Below are positions 1 through 45,588 of a stretch of DNA of 64,000 nt, one piece after another. The notes beneath the pieces were generated by a model. That model saw nothing but the letters and a program-made list of their open reading frames with translations, searched no databases and was not told the origin of the DNA. Location of the stretch: the NCBI GenBank assembly GCA_964406895.1, contig CAYOTK010000004.1:26016-90015 (forward strand). The letters run 5' to 3'. The DNA comes from an uncultured Candidatus Saccharibacteria bacterium (GTDB lineage Bacteria > Patescibacteriota > Minisyncoccia > Phycocordibacterales > PALSA-1337). Both the position numbers and the translations under genes were made by a program. The first letter of the stretch is position 1. Each line of letters begins with the position of its first letter.

Positions 1-1236
1 CCCCATAGCGGGAAGACCGTCCTCATGGGTTTGCTTCGGGGCCTGTTGCCCCGGGACAAATTCATGGTTGCAGAGGCGGCACCTGATGGTGAAGGTATCA
101 CCGGATGGTCTGCCGAAGCGACGCAGGAGCTTGTCAAAGCGGTTCGCCGCAAGGGCAAGTTCCTGCCACAGTTCGTGGATTGGGTGTGCGCCTCGGTGCA
201 TAACTCCACGATGCCGATCACTCTCGTCGACTTGGGCGGAATGCTCTTGGACGATGAGGGAAAGTTCTCCGCCACGGGTGTCAGGCTGACAACGGAGAAT
301 GAACGAATCATGCGGGAATGCAGTCACTTGATCGTGATTGCGAACCCGAGCTACATGGAGTCGGCGGTGCCTACCTGGATCGCTGAAGCCAATCGTCTGG
401 GGGTCAAACCCTTGGCCATCCTCGAGTCGGTTCTTACGGGAGCTGATGATGAGATTGTAGCTGGGGGTGAACTCCCGATGCGAGCGCGTATCACGAAGCT
501 CGACCGGGAAAATCCTCCCCAATCCACAACCGCAAAGGTGGTCGTGGATTTGATCCTTTCACTCACAACAACGGAAGTCGTTGTGAAGGATGGTTCGGAA
601 GTCGCGGATGTGAATTTCCCGCGACTTGCCGAAACGCTCAACCTGCCGGTAAAAAACGGCGGGGCGGATCGCGACTGGCGACCTTCGGATCTTCCGAAAG
701 TACTGGCTGAAGCCAAAAAGCTTCTGGCCGGAAAATCGGAAGTGCGCCTTTGGGGAAACACTCCTCTCGGCGCACCGTACCATGTCCTCGCGGCAAATCT
801 GTCGCAGGAGGTTTGGTACGCTGATCCGAAAGTTCCGGGTGGCTATGTAGCTATTCCGGAAATGCCGGCCAGCACGGGAACACTCCTTGACTGGAAAGTC
901 GGGGAACGGGATGACAGCTCTCTCGTGGAGTTTGTCATTCCTGGGCAGGTGTTCAATGCGAACACTCTGCCCACACTCACCTTGCCGGAAGTGGACACTC
1001 GCAATGGTGTCGTAATTTCCGGCAAAGGACCACGTTGGCTCACCGGCGCAATCGCTCGGGCTTATGCTCGGGCAGGCGCCGCCTGGGTAGCGGTCTTTGA
1101 ACCGCGCGAGTCCAGCCGGATGCAGACTGACGGAAAGAAATGGTCGGAACACCATTCTGGCCAAGCTCCGGCAATTGTGGTCTACACGCGAGAGCGAGAC
1201 CACACCATCGGAACGATCATTCCGTTCAGTCTGTAA
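1..1236 (+). CDS. P-loop GTPase-like protein, paralog A (5' partial; continues upstream of window)
   Basis: Frame 1 is open from nt 1 and reads PHSGKTVLMG before the ATG at 25, so the Walker A/G1 lies at the window edge. ITLVDLGG is a G3-like DxxG motif. The N-terminus (PHSGK[ST]..L..LLP....FGAPDGE..W..EA.Q.LVK, hhhVDxGG) and the C-terminal block (GP.WL...IAR.YA.AGA.W.AVF.P.ES.R.Q...G.KWS..H) are homologous to ORF 7006..8715. Codon usage is GC-rich. Confidence 0.6.
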   Translation, partial: PHSGKTVLMGLLRGLLPRDKFMVAEAAPDGEGITGWSAEATQELVKAVRRKGKFLPQFVDWVCASVHNSTMPITLVDLGGMLLDDEGKFSATGVRLTTENERIMRECSHLIVIANPSYMESAVPTWIAEANRLGVKPLAILESVLTGADDEIVAGGELPMRARITKLDRENPPQSTTAKVVVDLILSLTTTEVVVKDGSEVADVNFPRLAETLNLPVKNGGADRDWRPSDLPKVLAEAKKLLAGKSEVRLWGNTPLGAPYHVLAANLSQEVWYADPKVPGGYVAIPEMPASTGTLLDWKVGERDDSSLVEFVIPGQVFNANTLPTLTLPEVDTRNGVVISGKGPRWLTGAIARAYARAGAAWVAVFEPRESSRMQTDGKKWSEHHSGQAPAIVVYTRERDHTIGTIIPFSL

Positions 1237-1370
1237 CAATTCAAAGGAATGGCAACTTCCTGATCCTTGATGGACAAATCGTTGCAGAAGCTTCGGAGAA
1301 GTGCTTCGGTTTTACTTCTCCACTTTATTCAACTCACGAATGGTTCGTGGGTTGACTGAGAAAGGTTTTC

Positions 1371-1871
1371 ATGAAAAAAGTTCTTGAGGCGATTGAGTTC
1401 GCTTTTTTGAAACACTTGGGCCAAGAGCGCCCAGGAGGTGAACCACAATTCGCACACGTGCTCCGAGTCGCCAAGTTGGCGGAGGAATGCGCGCAATGGC
1501 TGTCGCCAGAATCCGGTGAAGTTTTGGTCGTGTCGGAAATCCTCCACGATGTGTTGGAGGACACGCCGACGACGGACGCAGAAATCTGCAAGAAGTTCGG
1601 TGATGAGGTTGCCAAAATCGTCCGCGCTCTCTCGCATGAAAGCGAGGAGGAACCGGATGAGGTATATCTCCGCCGAGTAGCTCGGGGAGGTAAGATTGCA
1701 GTGTTAGCCAAACGGTTTGACCGACTGGACAACCTGCGATCGCTTGCCACAATGCCAGCGGAATTTCGCGAGCGAAAACTCGCGGAAGTTCGCTCGGCAC
1801 TTCCCATCTGGCGAGAGATCGATCCGGATGGAGCTTTGGAAATTGAGAAAGGAGTGGAGAGTTATGGATAA
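1371..1871 (+). CDS. Small HD-domain hydrolase, SpoT/Mesh1-like (small alarmone hydrolase-like)
   Basis: HLGQERPGGEPQFAHV...SEILHDVLEDTPTTDAEICKKFGDEVAKIV...VLAKRFDRLDNLRSL follows the RelA/SpoT hydrolase HD pattern block by block (H..Q.RKSGEPYI.HP / LLHDV(I/L)EDT / FG..VA.LV / KLADR.HNMR.L). It is 166 aa with no synthetase domain. Confidence 0.65.
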   Translation: MKKVLEAIEFAFLKHLGQERPGGEPQFAHVLRVAKLAEECAQWLSPESGEVLVVSEILHDVLEDTPTTDAEICKKFGDEVAKIVRALSHESEEEPDEVYLRRVARGGKIAVLAKRFDRLDNLRSLATMPAEFRERKLAEVRSALPIWREIDPDGALEIEKGVESYG

Positions 1872-2118
1872 CCGACCACTTTACGAACTCAAAATCAGAG
1901 CAACTTTTGTCCTTAGACTCCCCGAACCAGTTCGCGCTGAATTCGTGGAAATCGCGAGGGCAAAGTCTCCTTCGGCGAGTTTTGATCTCGCCCAGTTCGC
2001 CGCGCGAGCACGCGGAATTGTTAGTACGGAAGTCATTGCGATCGCAAAAGCTACGCGTTGGCTCTCAGTGATTCGCCGTGATCATGGCGATCAAGTGTTT
2101 GAACAGATTGTCGCTTAA
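1864..2118 (+). CDS. Ribbon-helix-helix (Arc/MetJ-like) DNA-binding protein
   Basis: The ATG at 1864 overlaps the HD gene stop (ATGGATAA), suggesting translational coupling. N-terminus MDNRPLYELKIRATFVLRLPEPVRAEFVEIARA matches the Arc-type beta-strand/helix signature (..R.P..L...L...A). It is 84 aa. Confidence 0.45.
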   Translation: MDNRPLYELKIRATFVLRLPEPVRAEFVEIARAKSPSASFDLAQFAARARGIVSTEVIAIAKATRWLSVIRRDHGDQVFEQIVA

Positions 2119-2136
2119 CGTGGTAACGGGGGTTTT

Positions 2137-2352
2137 ATGCCAAAGAAAAAAAAGATGCCCAACCGACGGATAAAGGTAAAAGGGTTCACATTGGAAGTAG
2201 TTTCTCCGAAATGTCCTTTTTCCGACGCTACGACGGAGGAGCGAGCAAAGGATCAGGCAGAAATGATTGCCAATGGAGGAATTCATCCTGCATGGTTCTC
2301 GGTTACAGCCGAAGACGTCCAACGCGAGTTAGATAAGGACAAGCTCAATTAG
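2137..2352 (+). CDS. Hypothetical small basic protein
   Basis: 71-aa ORF starting 19 nt after the RHH gene, same strand, with GC-rich codon usage. No recognisable motif. Confidence 0.3.
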   Translation: MPKKKKMPNRRIKVKGFTLEVVSPKCPFSDATTEERAKDQAEMIANGGIHPAWFSVTAEDVQRELDKDKLN

Positions 2353-2387
2353 GAGCACATCGCGCCACAACGCGAACAATTTCAATC

Positions 2388-2420
2388 GGCGAGTTTTTGT
2401 GGAAACTCGCCCACTTTTTT
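2388..2420 (+). terminator. Rho-independent terminator followed by an AT-rich promoter-like patch (to ~2470)
   Basis: GGCGAGUUU / AAACUCGCC stem followed by CACUUUUUU. Then cctataatatttgtttttttaaaattgtagg forms an AT-rich patch inside the otherwise GC-rich island, upstream of the MoxR gene. Confidence 0.45.
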
Positions 2421-2530
2421 GAGCCTATAATATTTGTTTTTTTAAAATTGTAGGCTCTTTGAGTAAACGCCACAAAAATGGCGACGGCTTCAAATAGGTG
2501 CGCCGGAATAAGCACCAGTGGAGAATCACA

Positions 2531-3742
2531 ATGAGTGATATCGTCCAATTGGGGATTGATCTCGCCCCCAAGGTGTCCGCTGTAATGACGGATGTCCTAA
2601 CGCGAAATCTCGGCCGTGAGGCAATTGTGCGGGCAACAATGCTCGCGCTCGTTTCGGGCAGACCGGCGTTTTTCCTGGGCAGTCCTGGGATCAACAAAAC
2701 CGGGACGGTGCAGGACATCGCCCGTCGGGTTGACGGTGCGGTGTTTTTTGACGCGCTCATGCCGACCATCGTGTCGGTTGAGCAACTGTTGGTGGAGAGC
2801 ACCTCCATCGTGGAGTCCCCGATAACTGATGGAGGTAAATCCATCAGCACCAGCGACAAGCTTGGGCGAGCAGCAAACGCGCACATTCTGTTCGCCGACG
2901 AGATTTGGAAAGCAGAACCTCGAGTTTTGCAGACCGTTTTGGACTTGGCGAAAGGCGACGGCGTTCGGCACGAGGGACGGATGATTAAAACCCCGCTTCT
3001 CGCTTTTGTGGCGGCCAGCAATGAGCTGCCGGATTCTGAAGGAAACCTCGGAGCACTGTGGTCACGAATGACCATTCGAGCCGAGGTGAAGTCCCTTGAC
3101 CGGGCCGGAAAAAAAAGCCTGGTCGCGACGCGATTGAACCGGCAACAGGCCGGCAAGTCAGCGCCGACAGGGGCGACTCTGACACTCGCTGAAGTGGAAA
3201 CGCTTCGCGAGGTTCGGCCGTTCGTGGAGGTTGGTGACGATATCGTCGAGATTGTACTCGACCTTTACCAATCGCTCCTTGACGGGGACAACGCCGGGTT
3301 CGCCTGGCTATGGGCCGACGACCGACGGTTCGGTCGTTGCATTGACGTTTTGCAGGCCAGTGCACTCCTTGACGGGAGAGCGCGAGTCGGCAAGCAGGAC
3401 CTTCGGGTTCTGGAGTTCTTGCTCTGGGACACCCCCGAGCAGATCCCCGTCGTCAAAAGCAAAATCGCCCCGCTCTGTCGGACACCACTGTCCGACGCGC
3501 AGGAGCTCGTAGACACACTCTTCGCTCCAGCGGGAGTGGTGGCGGAAGCGCTGGCTGGCGATCGGAACAAGATTGTTCCGGCCATCACCCAGTTTGAGGA
3601 GGCTGAGAAGGAACTCAGCCGGCTCGCGGGTGAGGCGAGTGGAACGGAAAAGGAGCAGATCGGCACGCTCCTCGCCAAAATTGCCGAGGAAAAACAGAAC
3701 GCGGTGGCGATCATACTTGGCGCCAAGCGTTGGAAAAAGTAG
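2531..3742 (+). CDS. MoxR-like AAA+ ATPase with atypical Walker A
   Basis: Start taken at the second ATG (MSDIVQLG), with GGAGA 8 nt upstream. Walker A is LGSPGINKTG (N replaces the conserved second G). Walker B is ILFADEIWKA. The MoxR sensor region DEI.KA.P.....LL....E......G......P..F..ASNELP parallels DEINRA...TQ.ALLEAM.E..V......-....F.VIATQNP. Confidence 0.7.
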   Translation: MSDIVQLGIDLAPKVSAVMTDVLTRNLGREAIVRATMLALVSGRPAFFLGSPGINKTGTVQDIARRVDGAVFFDALMPTIVSVEQLLVESTSIVESPITDGGKSISTSDKLGRAANAHILFADEIWKAEPRVLQTVLDLAKGDGVRHEGRMIKTPLLAFVAASNELPDSEGNLGALWSRMTIRAEVKSLDRAGKKSLVATRLNRQQAGKSAPTGATLTLAEVETLREVRPFVEVGDDIVEIVLDLYQSLLDGDNAGFAWLWADDRRFGRCIDVLQASALLDGRARVGKQDLRVLEFLLWDTPEQIPVVKSKIAPLCRTPLSDAQELVDTLFAPAGVVAEALAGDRNKIVPAITQFEEAEKELSRLAGEASGTEKEQIGTLLAKIAEEKQNAVAIILGAKRWKK

Positions 3743-3754
3743 AAAGGATCGGAA

Positions 3755-5491
3755 ATGCAAACGAAAGCCAGCCCGCTCATGCGGCAGGAGTTGCAGAAAC
3801 TCCTGGTCACGGATGCGGACGCTTTCACGGCGCTCCGCTTCCTGCGTCACCGCGAGCGCACCCCAGCGCTTTCGGAATTGGAAAACCAAGGAGGAAACGA
3901 GGTGCCCGGTTTTGCCGGAGCGCTTTGTGACCTCTACCACTCACTGTGGACGGAGACACCCAAGGTCAAGGAAGAAATTCCGGCTGACCGGCGGTTCTTC
4001 GCGGAGATTCTTCGGGGGGCGCTGGCATCGTCAGCGTTTGATGGTCTCCACGCGCAGACACAGTACTCAGACATCAAGTCGGTACTCGGCACCCTTTCCA
4101 TGGGTGATGCAGTGCTGGCAACGATGTCTCCGGAGGAAAAGAAAAATCTCCAAGACACTGCTAGTGCGCAGAAAACAGCGGATGAAGCCGAGGACGAGGC
4201 CAAACAGGCCGAGAACGAAGCTGATTCTGCTGAAGCACTCGCCCAGATGGTGGAGCAATCCGCCGGACAGGGCGAGAGCAGTGAGGGCGGACAAGAATCA
4301 TCCGGCGATCCTTCGGGAGAAGCCGAGGGTGGTTCTGGAGCGCCCAAATCAGGCAGTCCTTCAGGATCGCCAAGTGGTGGTTCACACGGAGCAGTTAGCG
4401 GAATGACGCCCGATGAAGCGCAGGCACTTGCGAACGAACTCGCTCGACAAGCGAGGGAGGCGCGTGCCAAAGCCAACTCGGCACGCGAAACTGCGAACAG
4501 CGCCAAAGAGGTCGCCGAATCCATCGCCAACCAACTTCTGGGGCAACCCGGAAGCGAGGAGGCGATGGAGAGAGCGAAAGATCTGGCGCGTCGTGGATTA
4601 GCCGCTGCTCAAAAGGCCCAAGCGAAGGTTGAGGAAGTATCCAAGACCATTGACTCGTGGGGGCTTGAGGAAGGCGAGCTCGTCCAGATGGGCATTCCGG
4701 AGGCCATGGGGCTTCTAGAAAAAATGCGCCAGAGCACGGCGCTCAAGAAGTTTGCTCAACTCCTGGGCCGAATCAAAAAGATTGCCGCTCGAAAAGCGGC
4801 GTCCGATGATAAAGCCGATGGAGTGCGAGTCACGAAGCCGGAAACGGGTCATGATATCAAAAGAGCGCTTCCGAGGGAGCTCACTGCTCTCTCGCACCCA
4901 TCGCTTCGTTTCGGCGCACTGACGCGCTGGAGCCGAGGAGAACTCGCTCTTCGGGGCGAGGAATCAAAGAGGAAATTGGGCGAGGGGCCGGTCGTGGTCT
5001 GCGAAGACTCGTCAGGCTCTATGGACGGGGTTAAGCAACAGTGGGCAAAGGCTGTAGTTTTAGCACTGGCCCATTACGCAAAGCTTCGTAACCGATCGTT
5101 CGCGTGGATCATGTTTGACACTGCTATCCAGCGGAGTCGCATTTACACTCGCGGGCGATTAACGCCCAAGGACCTTTTGGAAATCGCCGAGTCACGCTCA
5201 GGAGGTGGGACGAATTTTGAAATCCCCCTTCGCGAAGCCGTCAAAGTGATTCGTGGTGCTGGCCTTAAGAAAGCCGACATTGCGTTCATCACCGACGGGG
5301 ATTGCGCGATTTCGGACGAATTCGTTCGGGAGTTTGGTGGGGTCAAGAAGGCATTGGAAGTCAACGTGTTCGCAGTTCTCTGCGATGTTGGCCATACTGC
5401 CGAGGCGACCATTGCAAAATTCTCGGACAGAATTGAACAGGCTTCATCTTTCAACGAGGATGAAGCGGAACAATTTTTCCAAAAACTCTGA
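3755..5491 (+). CDS. von Willebrand factor A (vWA) domain protein with acidic/coiled-coil N-terminal region
   Basis: Starts 12 nt after MoxR, with AAAGGA upstream. The C-terminal vWA domain has a complete MIDAS: VVVCEDSSGSMDG (DxSxS), SRSGGGTNF (T) and AFITDGD (D). The N-terminal ~380 aa are Ala/Glu/Ser/Gly-rich low-complexity and coiled-coil. Confidence 0.75.
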   Translation: MQTKASPLMRQELQKLLVTDADAFTALRFLRHRERTPALSELENQGGNEVPGFAGALCDLYHSLWTETPKVKEEIPADRRFFAEILRGALASSAFDGLHAQTQYSDIKSVLGTLSMGDAVLATMSPEEKKNLQDTASAQKTADEAEDEAKQAENEADSAEALAQMVEQSAGQGESSEGGQESSGDPSGEAEGGSGAPKSGSPSGSPSGGSHGAVSGMTPDEAQALANELARQAREARAKANSARETANSAKEVAESIANQLLGQPGSEEAMERAKDLARRGLAAAQKAQAKVEEVSKTIDSWGLEEGELVQMGIPEAMGLLEKMRQSTALKKFAQLLGRIKKIAARKAASDDKADGVRVTKPETGHDIKRALPRELTALSHPSLRFGALTRWSRGELALRGEESKRKLGEGPVVVCEDSSGSMDGVKQQWAKAVVLALAHYAKLRNRSFAWIMFDTAIQRSRIYTRGRLTPKDLLEIAESRSGGGTNFEIPLREAVKVIRGAGLKKADIAFITDGDCAISDEFVREFGGVKKALEVNVFAVLCDVGHTAEATIAKFSDRIEQASSFNEDEAEQFFQKL

Positions 5492-5502
5492 AAGAGGAAA
5501 TT

Positions 5503-6156
5503 ATGGAAAATATCGTTGTAACGCTTCGAGCTGACCGGGGCAACAAGTTCGATGAAGACGGTCAGTGTATCGGGACCCATGAAAGGTCAATCGTCTTCAT
5601 GCCACGCGAGGTCAAGCCTGACCAAGTTGTCCGCGTCCGACTCATACCGATCATGGATCGAATGACGGGGAAAGAAAGAGTGGACAAAGGTGGCAGAGTT
5701 ATGTACCGCGCCGAACTCGCACCAGCGGAACTGCCGAGGAAATGCGAGGAAGACATTGCAAGGCAAGCAAAAGCCTTGCGGCAAGGCAAACCCTTTCCGA
5801 AGGATCAAGGCGAGGCACTCGCCAAATCCATATTTGGTAAGCGATTGGAACGTACTGACCACAAGTGGTACTACTTTTTCGCTGATGCCATCTTGGGGTC
5901 GCGGTTTTCACCCGCTGCCCTATTGATCTTAGAGGGGATGCCGATGTCTTCTGGTAGCTCATACGATGAGCTTATGGGGTGGTTGATCGGTAAAACTCGC
6001 TGGGGTTACAACTGGTACCACTTCCGAGAATCAGGAAAGATCGGAAAGGATGAGGTTCCGGAGTTTCCAGAAATAGAGCTCCGGACACTTATCGCGCGCC
6101 TTGAAAAAGGCGAATGGGTCATCGCAGACCTCTTGGTTAAGGAGGAACCGCGATGA
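5503..6156 (+). CDS. Hypothetical protein with TRAM-like (OB-fold) N-terminus; candidate vWA-MoxR-associated partner
   Basis: Starts 11 nt after the vWA gene. N-terminus VVTLRADRGNKFDEDGQCIGTHERSIVFMPREVKPDQVVRVRLIPI resembles the TRAM pattern (G.G.....g.vvFV....PGE.V.v.I). The rest is unassigned. Confidence 0.4.
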   Translation: MENIVVTLRADRGNKFDEDGQCIGTHERSIVFMPREVKPDQVVRVRLIPIMDRMTGKERVDKGGRVMYRAELAPAELPRKCEEDIARQAKALRQGKPFPKDQGEALAKSIFGKRLERTDHKWYYFFADAILGSRFSPAALLILEGMPMSSGSSYDELMGWLIGKTRWGYNWYHFRESGKIGKDEVPEFPEIELRTLIARLEKGEWVIADLLVKEEPR

Positions 6157-6191
6157 AAGGTTTTTGGTGCTGCAACACCAGTGGTTAAACC

Positions 6192-6235
6192 GGACGAATT
6201 TTTGCAGAAATTCGTCCACTTTATTCAATTCATAA
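6192..6235 (+). terminator. Hairpin after the TRAM-like gene (possible terminator)
   Basis: GGACGAAUUU / AAAUUCGUCC 10-bp stem, followed by ACUUUAUUCAAUUC, which is only moderately U-rich. Confidence 0.35.
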
Positions 6236-6327
6236 CTTCGGTTACGGATTGATAGAGTTTCAGCTCGAACCGCGTCCGCAGGCGCAACAATTTGCGGAAA
6301 AATTGCCCTTGAAAGGAGGGCTAACAG

Positions 6328-6774
6328 ATGAATTACAAAATCATCCCCGGATCCGTCGGGGTCCGGAAGTCGTTTCAGGTTACCTGCGGACTGCGCGTCG
6401 GGTACGACGCAGCCGCGGTGACTCACACCGGCGAGGAGGCCGTCGAGTCCGTCCTCGAACAATTGAAGTTCCGTGCGGCTGCGGGACTGCCGTACCTAAC
6501 CGGTACAATCACAACCGGAGAGGTCGTGTATGCATGGTCGGATGGGCCGGGCAAGGCCGGCGGCGGGCACGAGCCCGTCATCCGGTACGAGGGAGAAGTC
6601 AACCCCCTGTACAACAAGAATCTTCTCGAGAATCACGACGAGGTCGTCGCGATCTTGAACGAGCTCGGCATCGCCCTCGGAGCGGCGCTCGGGCAAACGC
6701 GGATCTACCTGGCCTACGACGGCCAGACGTGGATCCTCGAGGCGGAGAAGGCGGTTACCCCGACGGGTAACTAA
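6328..6774 (+). CDS. Hypothetical protein
   Basis: 148-aa ORF on the same strand within the island, with GGAGGG upstream. No recognisable motif. Confidence 0.35.
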   Translation: MNYKIIPGSVGVRKSFQVTCGLRVGYDAAAVTHTGEEAVESVLEQLKFRAAAGLPYLTGTITTGEVVYAWSDGPGKAGGGHEPVIRYEGEVNPLYNKNLLENHDEVVAILNELGIALGAALGQTRIYLAYDGQTWILEAEKAVTPTGN

Positions 6775-7005
6775 TTTCTCCAAAGGTTGTGTGAACCTTC
6801 AAAACATTCTGCGTCCCGCGTGGCGCAAAAAAATTTGGTTAACGGTGAGTGTATGCGGACACCCACAAAACTTTCAGCACCGGTCGGGTTGATCGGTGCT
6901 GGACTTTATTGAGTCCGTCCGCTTTTAGCGGGTTGATTCAAAAAGTTAAAGACAGCGACGAGAGTCGCCCGAGCCAGTCGGGTACTGGCATGAAAGGATA
7001 GCGGA

Positions 7006-8715
7006 ATGAAAAATATCCGCCGAGTAGTGGTTTGCGGACCCCCGCATTCGGGAAAGTCTGTGTTCCTAGCCAATCTCCAACGGCTATTGCCGGTTGAGCA
7101 TCACATGCTCATTTTCGGCGCTCCCGACGGTGAGTGGCATTGGAGCAACGAGGCCAACCAGAGCCTCGTCAAAAACCTGCGGGAAAAGAAAGGCTTCTCG
7201 CAGGACTGGTGCCGTCAAATCGTAACAGCGATCCAGAGTGCCGATCAGAAATTGGTACTCGTGGATACGGGTGGCAAGCGATTGCCACCGAACGATGAGA
7301 TCTTCTCGTCGTGCGATGGTTTCATCATTATTTCCTCATCGCCGGAGGAAATGATTGAGTGGCGGAAGTTCGGCGAGAGTTTCGGATGCCAGTGCTTGGC
7401 CGAGCTTGACTCGGTTTTGCATGGAACGTCAGAGCTCTATCCAGACCGCAAGGACGGCATCATCCGCGGTCAGATATGCGGTCTCGAGCGCGGGAAGACC
7501 ATTGAGTCGCCTGTGATGGACGCGGTGGCCAGTCGGCTTTGCGAAGTCATCAAAGCTAACGCTGAAATGACCAAGGCCGAACTTCTCGCCAACATCAATG
7601 GCGTGAAGTTGGTAGACCATCTGGGAATCACAGATCGCTCGGATCCGTATCTCGGAGTGAGGCCCTGGCACACGGCTCCTGCACTCAAACTCACGGCCGT
7701 GGCGCGCCGACTGGAAATCGTGCGAATCTGGAATGTCCGCACAAGTTTCCTGTCCTGCGCCTTCGCCTCGATGCTCCCAGGAAAAGTCCAGCTCTTCGGC
7801 GTGTCCGAGGGGTATGTGGAATTACCTGAAGTCGTTCCGGCTGGGAACGCTTCCGGCGATGGGGTGGAATGGGAAGTTACCGAACTGGCCGAGTATACCT
7901 TAGTGGAATTCCGCAAAACACGATTCTTCACTAAGGAACTGCTGGCGAGCGTGGTACCGCCCGTAGTCAATTCTCGCAAGGGGGTTGTGCTGTCTACGGA
8001 CGGTCCGCCCATCTGGCTAGACGCGACGATCGCAAGGTCGTATGCAAAAGCTGGCGCACCATGGATTGCTGTCTTCGTTCCGGTTGAGTCCGGACGAGTC
8101 CAGCCGTCTTTGGACGGCCAGAAATGGAGTGATGTGCACCCACCAGACGGACCGTGCGTGATAATTTACGGTCCGGAAAATCGGCTGGGAGAAATCATTC
8201 CCGTGCCGATTGCCCTGCTTAAATGGCAAGGGGGTGGACGTAAGTGGCGACTCGGGTCGGGCGAGCCAGTCGTGGATCGACAGAACAGCCACCTTGCCAC
8301 GCACGGCACGGTTTTGCCGTTCGTGGGTGAAGCCTTGCTCCAGATTCAATCCGGAGGACAAGACTTCATCGCCGAAGAAGTAGGTTTTGGCGAAGCCATC
8401 GGGCAGACGATTTGTGTCGCCACCCGCGAGGATGACGACATCGTTTTCGCCCAGCGGCCAAACCGAGCCGGACTCACACGGTTCGTGAAAGGTCGCGAGC
8501 CGGAGTCGTGCTCGACGGTTGTGGTTTGTCTAAAGCGAGCGCGGGAGGGCGGATACATCCTCCTTACTGCGTACATTGGTAGACGCACACCGGCCGAACC
8601 GTGGGACATGGAATGGGCAACGGATCAGTCCGTGCCTTTCTGGAATTCCCATGCTCTGATTTGGGGGCACGAATCAACAATACCAGGAACTGAAACGAAG
8701 GTTTGTTCTTGGTGA
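7006..8715 (+). CDS. P-loop GTPase-like protein, paralog B
   Basis: G1 is VVVCGPPHSGKS and G3-like is LVLVDTGGK. The N-terminal domain and a C-terminal block (GPPIWLDATIARSYAKAGAPWIAVFVPVESGRVQ...GQKWSDVH) are paralogous to ORF 1..1236. An additional ~170-aa C-terminal extension is present. Confidence 0.65.
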   Translation: MKNIRRVVVCGPPHSGKSVFLANLQRLLPVEHHMLIFGAPDGEWHWSNEANQSLVKNLREKKGFSQDWCRQIVTAIQSADQKLVLVDTGGKRLPPNDEIFSSCDGFIIISSSPEEMIEWRKFGESFGCQCLAELDSVLHGTSELYPDRKDGIIRGQICGLERGKTIESPVMDAVASRLCEVIKANAEMTKAELLANINGVKLVDHLGITDRSDPYLGVRPWHTAPALKLTAVARRLEIVRIWNVRTSFLSCAFASMLPGKVQLFGVSEGYVELPEVVPAGNASGDGVEWEVTELAEYTLVEFRKTRFFTKELLASVVPPVVNSRKGVVLSTDGPPIWLDATIARSYAKAGAPWIAVFVPVESGRVQPSLDGQKWSDVHPPDGPCVIIYGPENRLGEIIPVPIALLKWQGGGRKWRLGSGEPVVDRQNSHLATHGTVLPFVGEALLQIQSGGQDFIAEEVGFGEAIGQTICVATREDDDIVFAQRPNRAGLTRFVKGREPESCSTVVVCLKRAREGGYILLTAYIGRRTPAEPWDMEWATDQSVPFWNSHALIWGHESTIPGTETKVCSW

Positions 8716-9295
8716 AAAAAGTGTTAGAAAGTGCACCCAAAAAACTTTCCTCCGCTACAGAGCGTTGTGGCAAACATACGCATATGTAATTGTTCTTTTG
8801 GTCAACGGTAGTTCTGATGCGTCAGGGTTACCACAACAAAATTCCCAGCACCGCCTTGGTCGGTGGCGCTGGACTCAATTGAGTTCATGATTTTAGAGGA
8901 TCGTGAATTCATAGAGTATTACGCAGTGAAATAAGCATTAAAACAAAAAGAAGGCCCCATAAAGCTATAGGCCAGCATGACGGAATCAGATCAGGAAAAA
9001 GTGCGAGTGATTGCAAAATCTCTCTCCTCTAACCCTTCGACAAGCTCAGGATTATCCCGAGCAAAGTCGAGGGACAAACACGATTTCTTGGTTTGTCATC
9101 CAGTCGTTATGACCTGTAGCTTTATGGGGCTTTTTCATAATTCAAGACAATATACATTGCCACAATGTCAACATGGTTATTAGGTTGCTTAAAATATGGC
9201 TTATTATATAATTGATGCATGGTTCGAAACTCGATCCACCTTCACACTAGTGAATGGTAGGCCGAGACCATTTATTAGCATTAACAATAAATATA

Positions 9296-9568
9296 ATGAA
9301 CAAAGCAAGCATTGTAGAAGCAGTTCATGCAGTTCTCGGTGGAACAAAGGTTCAGGCCGAGCAAGCAGTAGAAGCAGTGATCAACAGTGTCATTGATTCT
9401 CTCAAGAAGGGTGAGGAGGTCTCAATCGCAGGTCTCGGCATCTTCTCGGTCAAACAGCGTGCAGCACGCGAGGCTCGTAACCCAAGGACAGGTGAATCCA
9501 TAAAGGTTCCTGCCATGAAGGTTCCTAAGTTCCGCGCCGCAAAGGCATTGAAGGATGCAGTAAAATAA
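9296..9568 (+). CDS. hup: HU family nucleoid DNA-binding protein
   Basis: MNKASIVEAVHAVLGGTKVQAEQAVEAVINSVIDSLKKGEEVSIAGLGIFSVKQRAAREARNPRTGESIKVPAMKVPKFRAAKALKDAV matches the HU/IHF signature (GFG.F.....R.GRNP.TGE...IPA...P.F.AGK.LKD). Start taken at the internal ATG (MNKAS). Confidence 0.85.
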   Translation: MNKASIVEAVHAVLGGTKVQAEQAVEAVINSVIDSLKKGEEVSIAGLGIFSVKQRAAREARNPRTGESIKVPAMKVPKFRAAKALKDAVK

Positions 9569-9598
9569 TACTTCAACTTCGTTTCTTACAGAAAAACA

Positions 9599-11039: not shown

Positions 11040-11214
11040 AAGTTATATTTCTACTACTCACTTTTTCTACAAAATTTATTACAATACATTCATGACCTAA
11101 TAAATCTCTTATGAGAATGATCTGAAAAAATCTTAACACCGGAACAAATCAGTAGTGCCTGCACCGAGCGAGGAACAAACCCTCATCTTAGGCACAAACT
11201 TCAACGAATCGAGG

Positions 11215-11285
11215 TGCGGGCAGGGAGAATCGAACTCCCGTCTACACATTGGAAGTGTGTTATTCTACCACTAAACCATGCCCGC
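11215..11285 (-). tRNA. tRNA-Gly (anticodon UCC)
   Basis: The reverse complement reads GCGGGCAUGGUUUAGUGGUAGAAUAACACACUUCCAAUGUGUAGACGGGAGUUCGAUUCUCCCUGCCCGCA. It has a 7-bp acceptor, a GUUU/GAAU D-stem, an ACACA/UGUGU anticodon stem with loop CUUCCAA, and T-arm GGGAG-UUCGAUU-CUCCC. CC is encoded after the discriminator but the final A is not. Confidence 0.8.
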
Positions 11286-11363
11286 AATATTCAGTTATTT
11301 AAGAACAAAGTCAATACTAGCAATTATTTTTCGATATAACAAGACACTAATTTATCCAAAAAA

Positions 11364-11804
11364 TTATTTTTTATTTTCGTTTTCACTCTTTCCATCAACA
11401 ATCACCTCTTTGATCTCATCAATCTCCTTTTTCATCTCCTTGATTGTTGTTCTGATCTGCCCTATCTGCATTTCTTCCTCTTCTATTTCCTTCTCAGTTT
11501 TGTCCGTAACCTTCTTTTGCCCCTTCAAACCACTAATCAATATGGTGTCCCCTATAAAATAAGAAACAAACAATCCGGTAGCAAGCAAAACAATCAACAC
11601 CAAGATAAGACTTATAGGTTCATAGAATATGATGCCCCACCACCCTCCTTTGGCCTGAAGTATGTCGGCAGTATGCCAAACACCTCTCCAAAACAAAACA
11701 ATAGCCGTACCCCCTATCAACGTATAAAGAATAGGATAACGACTGAGGTGAACCCTGATCACATCCTCCAATTTATCAAAGAAATTTACTACTCTTTTTA
11801 TCAT
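11364..11804 (-). CDS. Hypothetical small membrane protein with Lys/Glu-rich C-terminus
   Basis: 146-aa ORF with two hydrophobic segments (LIGGTAIVLFW, ISLILVLIVLLATGLFV). AT-rich codon usage consistent with the host. Confidence 0.4.
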   Translation of the reverse strand: MIKRVVNFFDKLEDVIRVHLSRYPILYTLIGGTAIVLFWRGVWHTADILQAKGGWWGIIFYEPISLILVLIVLLATGLFVSYFIGDTILISGLKGQKKVTDKTEKEIEEEEMQIGQIRTTIKEMKKEIDEIKEVIVDGKSENENKK

Positions 11805-11831
11805 TTTTATGATTAATTTACTTAATATTCT

Positions 11832-11907
11832 TGGTCGGAGCGCCGGGATTCGAACCCGGAGTCACCTGTACCCAAAACAGGTATGTTAGCCGTTACACCA
11901 CGCTCCG
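11832..11907 (-). tRNA. tRNA-Pro (anticodon UGG), CCA encoded
   Basis: The reverse complement reads CGGAGCGUGGUGUAACGGCUAACAUACCUGUUUUGGGUACAGGUGACUCCGGGUUCGAAUCCCGGCGCUCCGACCA. Anticodon loop is UUUGGGU, T-arm is CCGGG-UUCGAAU-CCCGG, and the 3' CCA is genomically encoded. Confidence 0.8.
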
Positions 11908-11949
11908 TATGCAATGATATTAGCATAATATATCGAAATTGCACACGAA

Positions 11950-12348
11950 TCACAAAATAATATCCTGAATCCAATTGATATTCCCTGCCCTATTATCAGA
12001 ATCGATGTGAATTGCCAAAACGTGAAAATAAAATCTGATCTCATCACTTATTTTATTTTCATTCAAGTATGTTTCTATCATTCTGCGAATATGCTTCACC
12101 TTGAAACCATGAACATTCTCTTCCGGCCTATGGATGTCTGTTACATTTCCTATATTAAAAGTCGTGCTTTTTACCTCGAAGAAATGTATAGCACCATCCT
12201 TGAAACCAACAATATCTAATTCTCCCCATTTACGTTGGTAATTTCTAGCTATAATAGAAAAATTATTTTTCTTCAAGAAATCGCAAGCAATATCTTCTCC
12301 AATCTTTCCAAAGTATTTATTTTGTTTTTTGTTTGCATTATTTAACAT
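11950..12348 (-). CDS. YraN/UPF0102 family endonuclease-like protein
   Basis: 132-aa protein with GELDIVGFKDGAIHFFEVKS, matching the UPF0102 core (GE.DI.....L.FVEVK.R). Confidence 0.6.
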   Translation of the reverse strand: MLNNANKKQNKYFGKIGEDIACDFLKKNNFSIIARNYQRKWGELDIVGFKDGAIHFFEVKSTTFNIGNVTDIHRPEENVHGFKVKHIRRMIETYLNENKISDEIRFYFHVLAIHIDSDNRAGNINWIQDIIL

Positions 12349-12692
12349 AAATGTCCTGACTTTTAAACTTGAATAATAATAGTACGGCCCAAATTAGCCA
12401 CATTCACAGTATTCACAAATAATAGGACCAAAAAACACGAATATTAGCCATATTTCCTGTCTTTTATCACCACTATTAACAGACTTATCCACAGTTTGTC
12501 CTTTCAGCCCACGAATTTAAGCCGTATTTATCCGACTTATATGTGTATAAAGTACTGTCGTTTATACTTTACAATTCGTACTAATATTCCGCTCTAATAA
12601 AGCATTGTCTAACAAAAAACTACACACTTATTGTGCCTGCACCGAGCGAGGTGCTAAATCGAAATTATTTACTAATCACGAAAAAATTGAGG

Positions 12693-12763
12693 TGCGGGTA
12701 GGGAGAATCGAACTCCCACCTCGTCCTTGGCAAGGACGCGTCCTACCACTAAACGATACCCGC
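12693..12763 (-). tRNA. tRNA-Gly (anticodon GCC)
   Basis: The reverse complement reads GCGGGUAUCGUUUAGUGGUAGGACGCGUCCUUGCCAAGGACGAGGUGGGAGUUCGAUUCUCCCUACCCGCA. Anticodon loop is UUGCCAA. It is a paralog of the tRNA-Gly(UCC) and shares part of its 3' flank. Confidence 0.8.
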
Positions 12764-13001
12764 GGATTTCAACAAAAGGCATTATAGCCTATAATTTCAA
12801 AATTTGAAAGTTTTTACAAAACACTCTTGCTTCGCCAAAGGCTTCGCAAGACGAGTGCGTTTTTATAACTGTCCTACTACGCTCCTCACTCCGTTCGGAG
12901 CTTCGTAGGACTGCTTCGCGAAAGTGTATTATTGAGAATGCAATTAAACAAGTACTTGTACTGCGAAGCGACCCCAGCGATTAGCTGGGGTCGCGAAGCA
13001 G

Positions 13002-13075
13002 TACGCCCGGCAGGACTCGAACCTGCAACCCCTTGGTTCGAAGCCAAGTACTCTATCCAATTGAGCTACGGGCGC
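13002..13075 (-). tRNA. tRNA-Arg (anticodon UCG)
   Basis: The reverse complement reads GCGCCCGUAGCUCAAUUGGAUAGAGUACUUGGCUUCGAACCAAGGGGUUGCAGGUUCGAGUCCUGCCGGGCGUA. Anticodon loop is CUUCGAA, T-arm is GCAGG-UUCGAGU-CCUGC, with a G1-U72 wobble. CCA is not encoded. Confidence 0.7.
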
Positions 13076-13139: not shown

Positions 13140-14609
13140 ATGATAATACCGAGTGAAATAAGCATAATCCTTGAAACGATCCGCAAATCCGGCCATGAAG
13201 CATATCTAGTCGGGGGTTGTGTTCGAGATATATTCCTCGGAAGAAAGCCAAAAGATTGGGACATAACAACGAATGCCAAGCCAGAAGAAATCCAGAAACT
13301 GTTTACAAAAACCGTGTATGAGAATATATACGGTACTGTAGCAGTAATAAACGAGGAAACTCTTGATGACACTCTAAGACAGGTAGAAATAACTCCCTAT
13401 CGACTAGAATCAATATATTCAGACAGCAGACACCCTGATCACGTAATATTTAGTGAGGAAATTGAAGATGATCTGAAAAGAAGAGACTTTACTATCAATT
13501 CCCTAGCTCTCAATGTCTCAGAAGATACAATAAAAGACACCATTGACCTTTTTGGCGGTTTAAAAGATATAAAAGACAAACTTATAAAGACAGTCGGCAA
13601 TCCAGACGATAGATTCACGGAAGATAGCCTTAGAATGATGCGTGCCATAAGACTGTCAGTTGAACTTGATTTCAAAATCGACATAGATACACTAAATTCT
13701 ATAAAGAAGCTAAACAAATCAATAAAACTGATAGCCATTGAGCGTGTAAGGGATGAATTCATAAAAATAATTATGTCTGACAGGCCTAAATTGGGCATTG
13801 AAATGCTGTATTCTACCGGATTATTGCAACATATAGTGCCAGAACTGATAAAAACAATCGGTGTTACACAAAACCAAGCTCATGCATATAATGTCTGGGA
13901 ACACCTGTTATTCAGTCTTCAACACGCTGCAGACAAGAAATGGCCTCTAGAAATAAGGCTTTCTGCCCTATTTCACGATATTTCAAAGCCACAAAAGAAG
14001 GGTCTTTCACGTGAAACAGGGATAATTACATTCTATGGACACGAATTGGCTGGTTCACGTGAAACACAAAAAATACTCGAAAGGCTCAAGTTTTCACGTG
14101 TAACTATAGACAAGATCGCCAAATTAGTGAGATGGCATATGTTCTTCTCGGATACCGAGATGATCACTCTATCGGCTGTTAGACGTATGATCGTTAACGT
14201 GGGACGCGAAAATATATGGGATTTAATGAATTTAAGAGTATGTGACAGAGTTGGCACCGGAAGACCTAAAGAAAATCCTTATAGGTTAAGAAAATACAAA
14301 GCAATGATCGAGGAGGCTCTGAGAGACCCAATCTCAGTTTCTATGCTGAAAATTGATGGAAACACTCTAATGAGTAAGTACAATCTCAAACCTGGTCCAA
14401 TCATAGGTAATATACTAAATGCACTTATGGAAGAGGTTCTAGAAGATCCAAAGCTAAATAATGAAGAATACCTGTTTTCACGTGTAAATGAACTAATATC
14501 TCTATCAGATAGTGAATTAAGAAAATTAGCAGATAAAGGCAAGGAAAAAAGAAATGAATTGGAAGAAAATGAAATAAAAGACATAAGAAATAAGCATCAC
14601 GTTGATTAG
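13140..14609 (+). CDS. cca: CCA-adding tRNA nucleotidyltransferase with C-terminal HD domain
   Basis: N-terminal nucleotidyltransferase motif YLVGGCVRD...DWDI, and an HD-domain region (HD at LFHDISKP). 489 aa. Confidence 0.85.
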   Translation: MIIPSEISIILETIRKSGHEAYLVGGCVRDIFLGRKPKDWDITTNAKPEEIQKLFTKTVYENIYGTVAVINEETLDDTLRQVEITPYRLESIYSDSRHPDHVIFSEEIEDDLKRRDFTINSLALNVSEDTIKDTIDLFGGLKDIKDKLIKTVGNPDDRFTEDSLRMMRAIRLSVELDFKIDIDTLNSIKKLNKSIKLIAIERVRDEFIKIIMSDRPKLGIEMLYSTGLLQHIVPELIKTIGVTQNQAHAYNVWEHLLFSLQHAADKKWPLEIRLSALFHDISKPQKKGLSRETGIITFYGHELAGSRETQKILERLKFSRVTIDKIAKLVRWHMFFSDTEMITLSAVRRMIVNVGRENIWDLMNLRVCDRVGTGRPKENPYRLRKYKAMIEEALRDPISVSMLKIDGNTLMSKYNLKPGPIIGNILNALMEEVLEDPKLNNEEYLFSRVNELISLSDSELRKLADKGKEKRNELEENEIKDIRNKHHVD

Positions 14610-15361: not shown

Positions 15362-16129
15362 CTACCTATAAAAAACCTGATCCTTAGTTGTCTTCCACAT
15401 CACCTCAAAAAGCTCTTGATGCATCTTTATAGTACTTTTGTTTTCAATCACTATAGCCATAATCGGCATTTCTAACTGATGAATCAGAATCCTCTGTGGA
15501 GTTATAACCATATTTGTTGTTAATTTGGTCTCCGGCGGTAAAGCCCTGGCTTCCATGTTGAAATTCTTCTGAAATTGAAGGATCTTCTTACTTTCTTCAT
15601 TTTCCGGATCAGCAACTAAAATTCTGACACGGATTGGCAGTTTCGACCGCCTATCACGTAAGTCGTCGTAAAAAGCCTTGTCTAAGGCATAAGCCTTCTG
15701 CATACCAGCAATAATCATATAATCCTCTTTAGGCTTGATGTCAGTAAGTAAACTATTATAAACCGATCGAATTCCTTCCATGCCTTCATATATTCTTATT
15801 AAAGTCTCCCCGCCACCCTTATTGTATATATCCATAAAATCTCTTAAGCGGGTCTTCAGTTTGCTTTTCCTTTGTTCCAAAATAATTTCCAGCTTTTCTG
15901 GACTTTCGGCCGCAAATAAACTTTTAAAGCCTCTGAACTCAACTCTAACCAACCCTTTTTCTTTTAAAGCATCGATTACTGTGTATATGGTGGTTCTTTT
16001 TACTCCAGAAGCTCTAGAAATCTTCAAAACTGATGTAGGGCCAAGGGAAATCATGGCAAAATACACGGCCGACTCATGTTCGGATAGGCCAATGTCTTTC
16101 AGAATATCAAAATATTGATTCTTTTCCAT
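15362..16129 (-). CDS. TrmB-like HTH transcriptional regulator
   Basis: N-terminus MEKNQYFDILKDIGLSEHESAVYFAMISLGPTSVLKISRASGVKRTTIYTVIDALKEKGLV is a winged-helix TrmB-family pattern. 255 aa. Confidence 0.55.
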   Translation of the reverse strand: MEKNQYFDILKDIGLSEHESAVYFAMISLGPTSVLKISRASGVKRTTIYTVIDALKEKGLVRVEFRGFKSLFAAESPEKLEIILEQRKSKLKTRLRDFMDIYNKGGGETLIRIYEGMEGIRSVYNSLLTDIKPKEDYMIIAGMQKAYALDKAFYDDLRDRRSKLPIRVRILVADPENEESKKILQFQKNFNMEARALPPETKLTTNMVITPQRILIHQLEMPIMAIVIENKSTIKMHQELFEVMWKTTKDQVFYR

Positions 16130-30942: not shown

Positions 30943-31980
30943 ATGAAAAAAAATGTACTCAAATATACATTTATGTTGCTAGCTCTTTTTGTTATGTCTC
31001 GTGATGCATATGCACAGAACAACATTCCTCAGGACTTATTAAGTTCGGGTTTCAAATTTGAGAAAAACCTCAAGATGGGTGATTCTTCATATCCGGATGT
31101 CAATTATTTGCAATATTTCTTGAACAAAGATGACAGGACGATGGTTTCCAGAATCGGTGCAGGCTCAGACAAACAAACTACTTCATTTTTCGGGTCAAAA
31201 ACCAAGAAAGCTCTCAATAATTTCCAAAATATATACAAATTACCACAAGGAATATTCGGCCCAGAATCGAGAGCAAAAGCCAATCAAATACTGGATATTA
31301 TGAGAAGCGCCACCACGACTGCGAGCAAACAAGGCTCGAATAATTCATTTAGAGTAGATGATGAAAAAGTTATAAATCTAATGTCAGAGAAAATCGACAA
31401 ACAAACAAACAAAATCACCAGCAATTCGCAGAAAGAATCAATAAAAACCAACATTATAGCCAAACTCAAAGACGAAATACGTAGAGCAAGATTCCAATCA
31501 TATATCAACAAATCTGGTTTCCAAATGGTATATGACAGTGATAAAGAAGATCTGACATTCAAAAAAGATTCTCTAGGCCCTTCGGGTTGGGAAAAATTCT
31601 TAACATATGCAAAAAAAGCATTTTCAACAACAGTAGCGCATGCATACTCGAAATCTAGCTCCAATCAAAATCTCGCACTCGGTTTCGGTGGAGGGGGAGC
31701 AGAAACACCTTTTGGTGGAATGCACGTATTAGCTATACAATGCACTTGCGGACAAAATACTCTGCACTATATTCTGGATTATAGAACTAATAATCTTTTG
31801 GCTCTAATATATCAACCTGGAAGCTCAATTCTTTATTCGAACTATAACCTATATGGAACGTATGAGCTCGGAACATACGGCCAAGTCACACAAAGCTGCC
31901 AAATCGAAGCAGGCGAGGATTGTGTTGAACTACAATCAGACGGAGATTTGGGTCATTCACCTGGAACAGGAACATCATAA
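30943..31980 (+). CDS. Hypothetical secreted protein
   Basis: Signal peptide MKKNVLKYTFMLLALFVMSRDAYA. 345 aa with no recognisable catalytic motif. First gene of a block of secreted/membrane proteins leading to the VirB4 locus. Confidence 0.45.
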   Translation: MKKNVLKYTFMLLALFVMSRDAYAQNNIPQDLLSSGFKFEKNLKMGDSSYPDVNYLQYFLNKDDRTMVSRIGAGSDKQTTSFFGSKTKKALNNFQNIYKLPQGIFGPESRAKANQILDIMRSATTTASKQGSNNSFRVDDEKVINLMSEKIDKQTNKITSNSQKESIKTNIIAKLKDEIRRARFQSYINKSGFQMVYDSDKEDLTFKKDSLGPSGWEKFLTYAKKAFSTTVAHAYSKSSSNQNLALGFGGGGAETPFGGMHVLAIQCTCGQNTLHYILDYRTNNLLALIYQPGSSILYSNYNLYGTYELGTYGQVTQSCQIEAGEDCVELQSDGDLGHSPGTGTS

Positions 31981-32014
31981 AAAGACCGAGATGTTAACAT
32001 GTATTGGCGATTAA

Positions 32015-32914: not shown

Positions 32915-32915
32915 A

Positions 32916-34700: not shown

Positions 34701-34703
34701 AAC

Positions 34704-36614: not shown

Positions 36615-36617
36615 TAT

Positions 36618-37238: not shown

Positions 37239-37275
37239 GCTTTGGTAACTGCTTTTTGTACGTTATAATACTGTC

Positions 37276-37710: not shown

Positions 37711-37711
37711 T

Positions 37712-38350: not shown

Positions 38351-38351
38351 T

Positions 38352-40166: not shown

Positions 40167-40170
40167 ATTC

Positions 40171-40620: not shown

Positions 40621-40678
40621 ATATAAATTCAGCTAGCTGTGAATTGATGATATGTGACGTTCACGATACAATATAGTC

Positions 40679-43047: not shown

Positions 43048-43048
43048 A

Positions 43049-45099: not shown

Positions 45100-45113
45100 A
45101 TAATTGTATTATT

Positions 45114-45452: not shown

Positions 45453-45453
45453 A

Positions 45454-45588
45454 TCAAACCGCTATTCTATGGCGGCCCTTACTGCGTCTCTTGGCCAAAA
45501 CCTTTCGACCAGAAGTCTTCTTCATGCGGACTCTGAAACCATGACTCTTGGCGCGCTTTCTTTTTTTGGGATTATAAGTGAATGACAT
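45454..45588 (-). CDS. rpmH: 50S ribosomal protein L34
   Basis: Not in the ORF track (44 aa). The reverse complement translates to [44 protein letters not shown]. Confidence 0.85.

Follow-up and report, generated by a model that had tools for sequence, protein, structure and literature searches.

What does a lone hydrolase of the alarmone type do next to a MoxR-vWA gene pair in the genome of a Saccharibacteria bacterium? The gene in question lies on the forward strand at positions 1371-1871 of the window, by which we mean the whole 64-kb stretch of DNA that was analysed, and encodes a protein of 166 amino acids with an HD domain. Small alarmone hydrolases are familiar in three settings: on their own, in phages as counter-defence genes, and in toxSAS modules as antitoxins. 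The earlier note on this DNA, made from the sequence alone, described the protein as a stand-alone SpoT/Mesh1-like hydrolase encoded just ahead of a ribbon-helix-helix regulator, and suggested that it forms an alarmone-linked control layer together with the vWA and MoxR genes.

The first part of that description holds. The 166-residue protein passes the Pfam HD_4 model (PF13328) with 47.5 bits against a cut-off of 27.2 (E = 2.1e-12), matches positions 1-134 of the NCBIfam model TIGR00691 (spoT_relA) with E = 1.1e-17, and finds its best relatives in the PDB among Rel enzymes (with their hydrolase domains), Mesh1 from Drosophila and humans, and small alarmone hydrolases (E values from 2e-11 to 2e-06). 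A phage protein family, phrog_990, is matched as well (8e-24). The HD domain spans residues 7-137, and the protein has no synthetase, TGS, or ACT domain. In the PDB matches, residues H29, H59-D60, E63-D64, D117, and N121 align with those of Rel and Mesh1, and the H, HD, ED, and DxxxN motifs (the last being the D and N of the DRLxN helix) are all present. An alignment of 45 relatives shows that H15, Q18, R20, E24, H29, H59, E63, T65, K114, D117, R118, and N121 are invariant, with D60 and D64 being conserved in at least 90% of the sequences. On these alignments, the protein is a genuine stand-alone RelA/SpoT-type HD hydrolase with an intact active site, its best matches lying within this family and not with another family of HD phosphohydrolases. 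The enzyme looks active and probably depends on Mn2+. Membership in the RSH fold family does not fix the substrate, since Mesh1 is also an NADPH phosphatase.

A full-library profile search places the protein in a clade of 39 clusters (E <= 1e-30) among 33,872 HD_4-like proteins, with a score gap separating the clade from generic RSH hydrolases and with two motifs, SHExEEEPDEVYL and IDPxGA, that belong to the clade itself. This clade is rare and found almost only in Patescibacteria (CPR): we found 14 loci among 185,579 species genomes, 11 of them in Patescibacteria/CPR, two labelled Gammaproteobacteria, and one labelled Pacearchaeota. The CPR groups represented are Adlerbacteria, Saccharibacteria, Paceibacterota, Doudnabacteria, Berkelbacteria, Falkowbacteria, Roizmanbacteria, and unclassified Patescibacteria, and nearly all named sources are metagenome-assembled genomes of Patescibacteria. 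Scans of metagenome and viral loci with the HD alignment were dominated by generic SpoT-like HD genes (27-41% identity) and yielded no contexts of this family.

The stop codon of the hydrolase gene (TAA, 1869-1871) overlaps the start of a second gene on the same strand (1864-2118), which encodes a protein of 84 residues; the overlap with its ATG at 1864 amounts to 8 nt, within ATGGATAA, and the sequence AAGGAG lies 9 nt 5' of this ATG. The overlap, to which the earlier note had drawn attention, recurs in relatives, being present in five of five pipeline gene calls from five different genomes (4-23 nt). The 84-residue ORF is a real conserved gene, with 36 homologue clusters and the invariant motifs KSPS..F and AKATRWL..IRRD.G. 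In three HD members of 267-268 residues (P0029, P0025, and P0018), moreover, the partner and HD domains form one fused polypeptide with the partner domain at the N-terminal side, and a BLASTP comparison of the partner with the fused domain gives E = 1e-09 and 44% identity spanning both motifs. The proposal that this gene encodes a ribbon-helix-helix regulator had to be abandoned. The AlphaFold model (pLDDT 94.7) is all-alpha with six helices and without the N-terminal beta-strand architecture, and no ribbon-helix-helix model was passed. The sole hint is a match to Arc with E = 0.085 over 22 residues, which is under the Pfam cut-off, and small size together with this weak similarity is what the protein shares with the Arc/MetJ/CopG regulators. 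A profile built from homologues of the 84-residue protein has no match among PDB sequences. Bacillus phage 0305phi8-36 gp64 (85 residues), a candidate homologue of the partner, was rejected because it shows no similarity. Given the fusions and the overlapping genes in five genomes, we interpret the 84-residue protein as a subunit that partners or regulates the hydrolase rather than as a repressor that binds DNA.

Both genes lie in an island of ten genes and 9.8 kb, which extends from a Csx15 homologue to the second of two P-loop NTPase-Csx3-like fusions (copies A and B). This block has a GC content of about 55%, compared to about 37% for the genome, with sharp edges at gene boundaries, and a GC excess around the module recurs in five other loci (L008, L013, L179, L181, and L184). 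The island is horizontally transferred. Direct repeats of at least 12 nt flanking the island were not found, and family-specific motifs have no match in the IMG/VR viral contigs. We also read the gene set from an identical contig (L001), which provides 8.6 kb of sequence upstream of the window. The Csx15 homologue (274 residues; L001 7576-8400) lies just upstream of the window and is followed by copy A (1-1236, forward strand; Pfam Cas_csx3, 1.6e-12; PADLOC AAA-Csx3, 9e-39). The window begins inside the gene for copy A, so that its 5' end is missing, and the complete product of 420 residues is seen in L001. Beyond the hydrolase and partner genes, and likewise on the forward strand, the island encodes a lineage-specific 71-residue basic protein (2137-2352) without a homologue in any of the other module loci, a RavA-like AAA+ ATPase of the MoxR type (2531-3742, with the start taken from the L001 gene call), a vWA protein (3755-5491), a 217-residue protein (5503-6156), a 148-residue protein resembling SAM lyases and SAM-AMP lyases of the PII superfamily (6328-6774), and copy B (7006-8715; PADLOC AAA-Csx3, 2.5e-49), which carries an additional C-terminal domain of 170 residues.

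Between the gene for the 71-residue protein, the last before a terminator-like hairpin, and the MoxR gene lie that hairpin (2388-2411), a T run, and then a promoter-like site (2419-2448). Terminator-like hairpins and the promoter-like site split the island into four parts, these being the hydrolase, partner, and 71-residue protein genes; the MoxR, vWA, and TRAM protein genes; the lyase-like gene; and copy B. The first of these units appears, from such signals, to be transcribed separately from MoxR-vWA in the window, an arrangement that counts against the reading we favour below. Genes for tRNA adjoin the module, and Rfam models identify five tRNAs and nothing else. The 8.6 kb upstream encode ClpP, RNase Y, a 951-residue GNAT-containing protein, TrmB, and two hypothetical proteins. 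Pfam assignments for window ORFs of at least 150 residues include the CCA-adding enzyme, PNPase, a XerC/D-type recombinase, KsgA, UvrD, DnaA, DnaN, RuvABC-related proteins, PolA, T4SS-like genes, and many hypothetical proteins.

The MoxR protein matches Pfam bpMoxR with 67.7 bits against a cut-off of 27 (E = 9.6e-19), together with AAA_lid_8 and AAA_5, and the NCBIfam RavA model with E = 3e-32. The vWA protein resembles ViaA and CoxE, has an extended N-terminal region, and carries DSSGS as its MIDAS motif; it matches NCBIfam ViaA (1e-11) and, with 25.5 bits and E = 1e-05, falls just under the Pfam cut-off of 26.4 for VWA_CoxE. It also has a strong phage relative in phrog_24053 (7e-54), and gp63 of Bacillus phage 0305phi8-36 is an example of such a relative that sits with a MoxR gene.

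The association of the hydrolase with this pair is not peculiar to the window. The order P-loop(-Csx3), HD, partner, MoxR, vWA is kept in at least 13 distinct loci (the window/L001, L005, L006, L008, L013, L015, L017, and L179-L184) with HD identities of 42-61%, and all named loci with the full order are from Patescibacteria/CPR. The P-loop NTPase of these loci is usually fused to a Csx3 domain, and in 12 of the 13 the vWA gene is followed by one for a protein that has the N-terminal domain of the 217-residue protein. This domain is a TRAM-like RNA-binding barrel, to which an alpha/beta C-terminal part is joined; relatives in other loci are far longer, and a profile of the 217-residue protein has no match in the PDB. 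A variant operon without MoxR-vWA is present in L007 and L009-L012, which share 79-89% DNA identity among themselves. It encodes a protein of 677 residues that ends with the same P-loop, one of 688 residues that ends with the HD domain, an HrpA-like DEAH RNA helicase (TIGR01967, 6e-112), and a 290-residue Csx3 protein. As the variant keeps HD, P-loop, and Csx3, the invariant association is that of the HD domain with the P-loop and Csx3 domains. The TRAM domain and the helicase of the variant operon point to RNA and not to a small nucleotide, against the reading that we favour below. A DHH/NrN-like identity considered for two proteins (L011_677 and L182_273) was dropped, the motifs having been seen by eye without support from Pfam, NCBIfam, or the PDB.

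Several of the remaining island proteins resemble components of type III CRISPR signalling. The two Csx3 domains score 47.5 and 24.7 bits with Pfam PF09620, both above its cut-off of 21, and that of copy B matches AfCsx3 in the PDB with E = 8e-07. In true Csx3, H57 and H60 are absolutely conserved and needed for ring-nuclease activity. At the positions of H57, H60, D69, and R71, copy A has R, A, E, and R, and copy B has R, A, V, and V, and H60 is missing in nine of nine module Csx3 domains aligned. The Csx3 domains of the island are probably binders, not ring nucleases. Lacking these histidines they may not handle cyclic oligoadenylate, a point that speaks against nucleotide signalling. The C-terminal domain of copy B matches phrog_23674 (1.4e-23) and occurs as a stand-alone protein, with 42% identity, within a tRNA gene region of Rak2-like jumbo phages; its profile has no match in the PDB. 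The homologue of Csx15, a CRISPR-associated, CARF-like family, scores 36.4 bits with the NCBIfam model NF040560, above its cut-off of 35 (E = 5.3e-09), and the functions of both Csx15 and P-loop-Csx3 fusions are described as unknown in the ring-nuclease literature.

The 148-residue protein matches the SAM-AMP lyase of C. botulinum (PDB 9lqd and 9gad) over almost its full length, at the marginal profile E value of 0.01 and the equally marginal hhalign probability of 77%, and its invariant residues E82 and Q123 align with the catalytic E71 and Q108 of the lyase. Independent proteins from L184 and L181, whose genes adjoin the module there, match the same lyase (E = 3e-04), share the WGCPxxGE motif with it when inspected by eye, and also match the AcrIII-1/STIV_B116 family weakly (0.006 and 0.013). 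The marginal level of the SAM-AMP lyase match and of the better AcrIII-1-like match is a further point against a signalling role.

The P-loop-Csx3 fusions, Csx15, and the lyase-like and TRAM proteins, together with the foreign base composition, all missed in the earlier note, move the likely context from the classical stringent response to a mobile module for conflict mediated by a nucleotide signal or by RNA. Of the alarmone-linked control layer proposed in the earlier note, the functional link to MoxR-vWA stands on the synteny in at least 13 loci. Within this context we favour, with a probability of roughly 0.45, a reading in which the HD enzyme would be the arm of a conflict module that erases a purine-nucleotide signal by stripping it of its 3'-(pyro)phosphate. 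The enzyme and its 84-residue partner or regulatory subunit would act together as one arm of the transferred module of about 10 kb, the other genes of which would encode proteins of types that bind or degrade signals, namely Csx15, the two P-loop-Csx3 fusions, and the protein resembling SAM-AMP lyase, in addition to the TRAM RNA-binding protein and the MoxR-vWA chaperone pair. Candidate signals are (p)ppApp, (p)ppGpp, or a relative, and removal of the 3'-(pyro)phosphate by the hydrolase would reset or limit the response of the module. Kaur, Burroughs, Iyer, and Aravind (2020) report that the effectors encoded in MoxR-vWA conflict systems include RelA-type synthetase domains, which makes an opposing hydrolase plausible.

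Pfam searches reveal no RelA_SpoT synthetase in non-shadow ORFs of at least 150 residues in the window and the 8.6 kb upstream, and the genes called in seven related loci do not include one either. This agrees with what the earlier note had seen in the window, but its suggestion that a synthetase might lie upstream finds no confirmation in the 8.6 kb taken from the identical contig. Nor did the island, the window, and the 8.6 kb upstream of it reveal any enzyme capable of producing 3'-pyrophosphorylated nucleotides, or a Cas10 or cyclase, and the 64-kb window contains no CRISPR array. As no signal-generating enzyme has been identified, the signal is hypothetical, and this is the main weakness of every signalling model.

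The main rival to a nucleotide signal is the repair or editing of RNA ends, which we consider unlikely. The hydrolase would clear 3'-pyrophosphate or phosphate from tRNA or other RNA, for example from CCA ends pyrophosphorylated by toxSAS-type toxins, with the TRAM protein binding RNA and the degenerate Csx3 domains sensing RNA ends. Published work shows that MESH1 and ATfaRel restore aminoacylation of CCA-pyrophosphorylated tRNA, and the activity originally ascribed to Csx3 was that of an RNA deadenylase. The TRAM-like barrel of the 217-residue protein and the RNA helicase of the variant operon fit this explanation, as does the phage homologue of the copy B C-terminal domain, which is found among phage tRNA genes. 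So does the location of modules, which adjoin tRNA genes in the window, lie between fusA and tuf in L179, and, as read by eye from translations, adjoin the S12, S7, and EF-G genes in L012.

Somewhat less probable, in our estimation, is a counter-defence cassette, the enzymes and sponges of which would neutralise immune messengers such as cyclic oligoadenylate, SAM-AMP, (p)ppApp, or pyrophosphorylated tRNA, which could originate from the cell, from a competitor, or from the host of the episymbiont. The enzyme families of the island are known to have members that act in viral anti-defence or erase signals, including phage small alarmone hydrolases, phage SAM-AMP lyases, and the Crn3/Csx3 ring nucleases; Csx15 might serve as a sponge, AcrIII-1-like domains adjoin the module in both L184 and L181, the vWA protein, the hydrolase, and the C-terminal domain of copy B all match phage families, and the GC content of the island is foreign. 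The Csx3 domains look catalytically dead, however, MoxR-vWA is not known from anti-defence loci, the island holds no phage structural or secretion genes, and the family-specific motifs are missing from IMG/VR.

It is improbable that the protein simply hydrolyses (p)ppGpp as a housekeeping enzyme in a reduced genome, surrounded by functionally unrelated neighbours. It has exactly the catalytic residues of (p)ppGpp hydrolases, and the hydrolase unit ends in its own terminator-like hairpin, but the gene lies inside an island of foreign GC content, its clade is very rare (14 of 185,579 species genomes), and distant CPR lineages retain the same gene order, with neighbours even being fused to the HD domain in some of them. 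The role of type IV antitoxin in a toxSAS module, an idea already raised in the earlier note, or a variant in which the hydrolase and the 84-residue protein form a toxin-antitoxin pair of their own, is very improbable, for although the PbcSpo hydrolase ATfaRel is a toxSAS antitoxin and small, overlapping genes are frequent in toxin-antitoxin pairs, the searches of the window, the upstream flank, and the gene calls of seven related loci yielded no RelA_SpoT synthetase, and the fusion of both domains in one polypeptide speaks against such a pair.

The favoured reading, that of a hydrolase erasing a nucleotide signal, can be drawn into a broader and more tentative proposal for the island as a whole. 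It may represent a hitherto undescribed system by which CPR bacteria use nucleotide signalling, independently of CRISPR, in conflict or counter-defence. A two-subunit SpoT-like hydrolase would then erase either a new messenger, an adenylate or guanylate modified at its 3' position, or a mark on RNA 3' ends, which would be sensed by the degenerate Csx3 domains and Csx15 and gated by the MoxR-vWA chaperone. The enzyme belongs with the RSH hydrolases and can be classed as a small alarmone hydrolase, and the island as a whole is a candidate for a new system. Full-text searches of the literature on Csx3 with vWA or MoxR, and on small alarmone hydrolases in Patescibacteria, turned up no account of this module. 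What is new is a small alarmone hydrolase with an obligate helical partner inside a mobile island, and one that joins MoxR-vWA chaperones to domains of type III CRISPR signalling with neither Cas10 nor a synthetase seen nearby. If our interpretation is correct, the island would offer an entry point to the roles of P-loop-Csx3 fusions and Csx15, and would bear on the substrates of RSH hydrolases beyond (p)ppGpp and on how CPR episymbionts handle immune or stress nucleotides.

The island can be compared with known systems. Homologues of the type III CRISPR ancillary proteins Crn3/Csx3, Csx15, SAM-AMP lyase, and AcrIII-1/Crn2 are encoded in or beside it, and Csx3 fused to an uncharacterised P-loop domain occurs in CRISPR loci too; the island differs in having no Cas10 or CRISPR array in 64 kb, in the loss of H57 and H60 from its Csx3 domains, and in the weakness of the lyase and AcrIII-1 matches. 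With the MoxR-vWA ternary conflict systems (Kaur et al. 2020) and with RavA-ViaA, the island has in common a MoxR gene followed by a MIDAS-containing vWA gene and then a variable third protein. Like the ternary systems it is linked to nucleotide-related and Csx3 domains, and the distribution of both is sporadic, consistent with horizontal transfer. The third protein of the island, however, has a TRAM-like domain instead of VMAP, iSTAND, FtsH, or beta-propeller components, none of which were detected in the island with Pfam and NCBIfam models. Its hosts, moreover, are tiny, non-multicellular CPR bacteria, and a SpoT-like hydrolase has not been reported in MoxR-vWA systems. Closest to the hydrolase itself are the small alarmone hydrolases Mesh1, PbcSpo/ATfaRel, PaSpo, P. 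aeruginosa SAH, and C. glutamicum RelH, which likewise consist of a single HD_4 domain in about 170-200 residues, carry the same H, HD, ED, and D..N metal and catalytic motifs, and have no synthetase, TGS, or ACT domain. Unlike these enzymes, the hydrolase of the window belongs to a discrete, almost exclusively CPR clade of 39 clusters with motifs of its own, is encoded within a MoxR-vWA/P-loop-Csx3 island and not next to a synthetase, and always comes with a new all-alpha partner of 84 residues, supplied either by an overlapping gene or by fusion.

The module lies within a high-GC island of 9.8 kb that occupies window positions 1-8720 together with about 1.1 kb upstream, or 7550-17345 of L001, the identical contig that reaches beyond the window start. 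GC content is about 55% in this island compared to about 37% genome-wide, and the edges of the GC excess are sharp and coincide with gene boundaries. A search for direct repeats of at least 12 nt flanking the island found none. A GC excess of this kind also extends around the homologous modules of several other CPR genomes. Just outside the island, a small ORF of about 50% GC (9297-9569, + strand) was recognized by eye as encoding a putative HU/IHF-type DNA-binding protein.

In most loci carrying related HD domains, the region 1-5 kb upstream of the module contains a divergently oriented gene for a TrmB-family regulator, next to one for a protein of 600-970 residues with a weak GNAT match. In L001 the regulator (5825-6628, - strand) likewise adjoins a protein with a weak GNAT match, and the equivalent position is occupied in L005, L013, L015, L179, L181, L183, and L184. 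Because the L001 regulator gene has the low GC content native to the genome, this arrangement points to conservation either of the insertion site or of the regulator as a neighbor of the module. A second TrmB paralogue is present at 15362-16129 (- strand) in the window. In L179, a contig of 1.03 Mb, the module has EF-G on one side and the EF-Tu/S10 genes on the other. The L012 copy of a variant operon, which retains the HD domain, P-loop and Csx3 and lacks MoxR-vWA, adjoins ORFs that by eye resemble ribosomal proteins S12 and S7 and EF-G. These positions could mean that the str operon region is a hotspot for insertion or that the module is linked to translation.

The variant operon (L007, L009, L010, L011, and L012) encodes a P-loop protein of 677 residues, a 688-residue protein with the HD domain at its C-terminus, an HrpA-like DEAH helicase, and a Csx3 protein of 290 residues. 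Its copies share 79-89% nucleotide identity across genomes labelled as Gammaproteobacteria, Pacearchaeota, Falkowbacteria, Berkelbacteria, and Saccharibacteria, a distribution that points to a mobile element or to errors in binning.

Beyond the island, four clustered tRNA genes (Gly-TCC, Pro-TGG, Gly-GCC, and Arg-TCG; 11213-13075, - strand) lie 2.5 kb from its edge and are followed by a CCA-adding enzyme with an HD domain of its own (13140-14609, + strand). Large genes lacking Pfam matches lie at 30943-44356, on both sides of genes for a TraG/VirB4-like P-loop ATPase (38352-40166) and a T4SS pilin-domain protein (41737-43047), and this region may encode a pilus or a system resembling type IV secretion. 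The genes yidC (- strand), dnaA, and dnaN occur together at 44359-48427, a segment that probably contains the chromosomal replication origin; the sign of the AT skew switches near 48 kb.

Several island proteins resemble known families. The first gene (L001 7576-8400), which stops about 230 nt short of the window, encodes a 274-residue Csx15-like protein, the C-terminal half of which matches NF040560 (CRISPR-associated Csx15) at 36.4 bits (cut-off, 35). Its vicinity contains no type III CRISPR locus. A 148-residue protein (6328-6774) resembles SAM lyase and SAM-AMP lyase at marginal E-values, and the residues corresponding to the catalytic E71 and Q108 do not vary among the four aligned sequences. 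Finally, the C-terminal 170 residues (8191-8715) of the 569-residue P-loop-Csx3 protein, copy B, have no Pfam or NCBIfam match and are matched by phrog_23674 (1.4e-23). In Rak2-like jumbo phages, this domain is encoded by a stand-alone gene, such as BF_0376 of Serratia phage BF, surrounded by phage tRNA genes.
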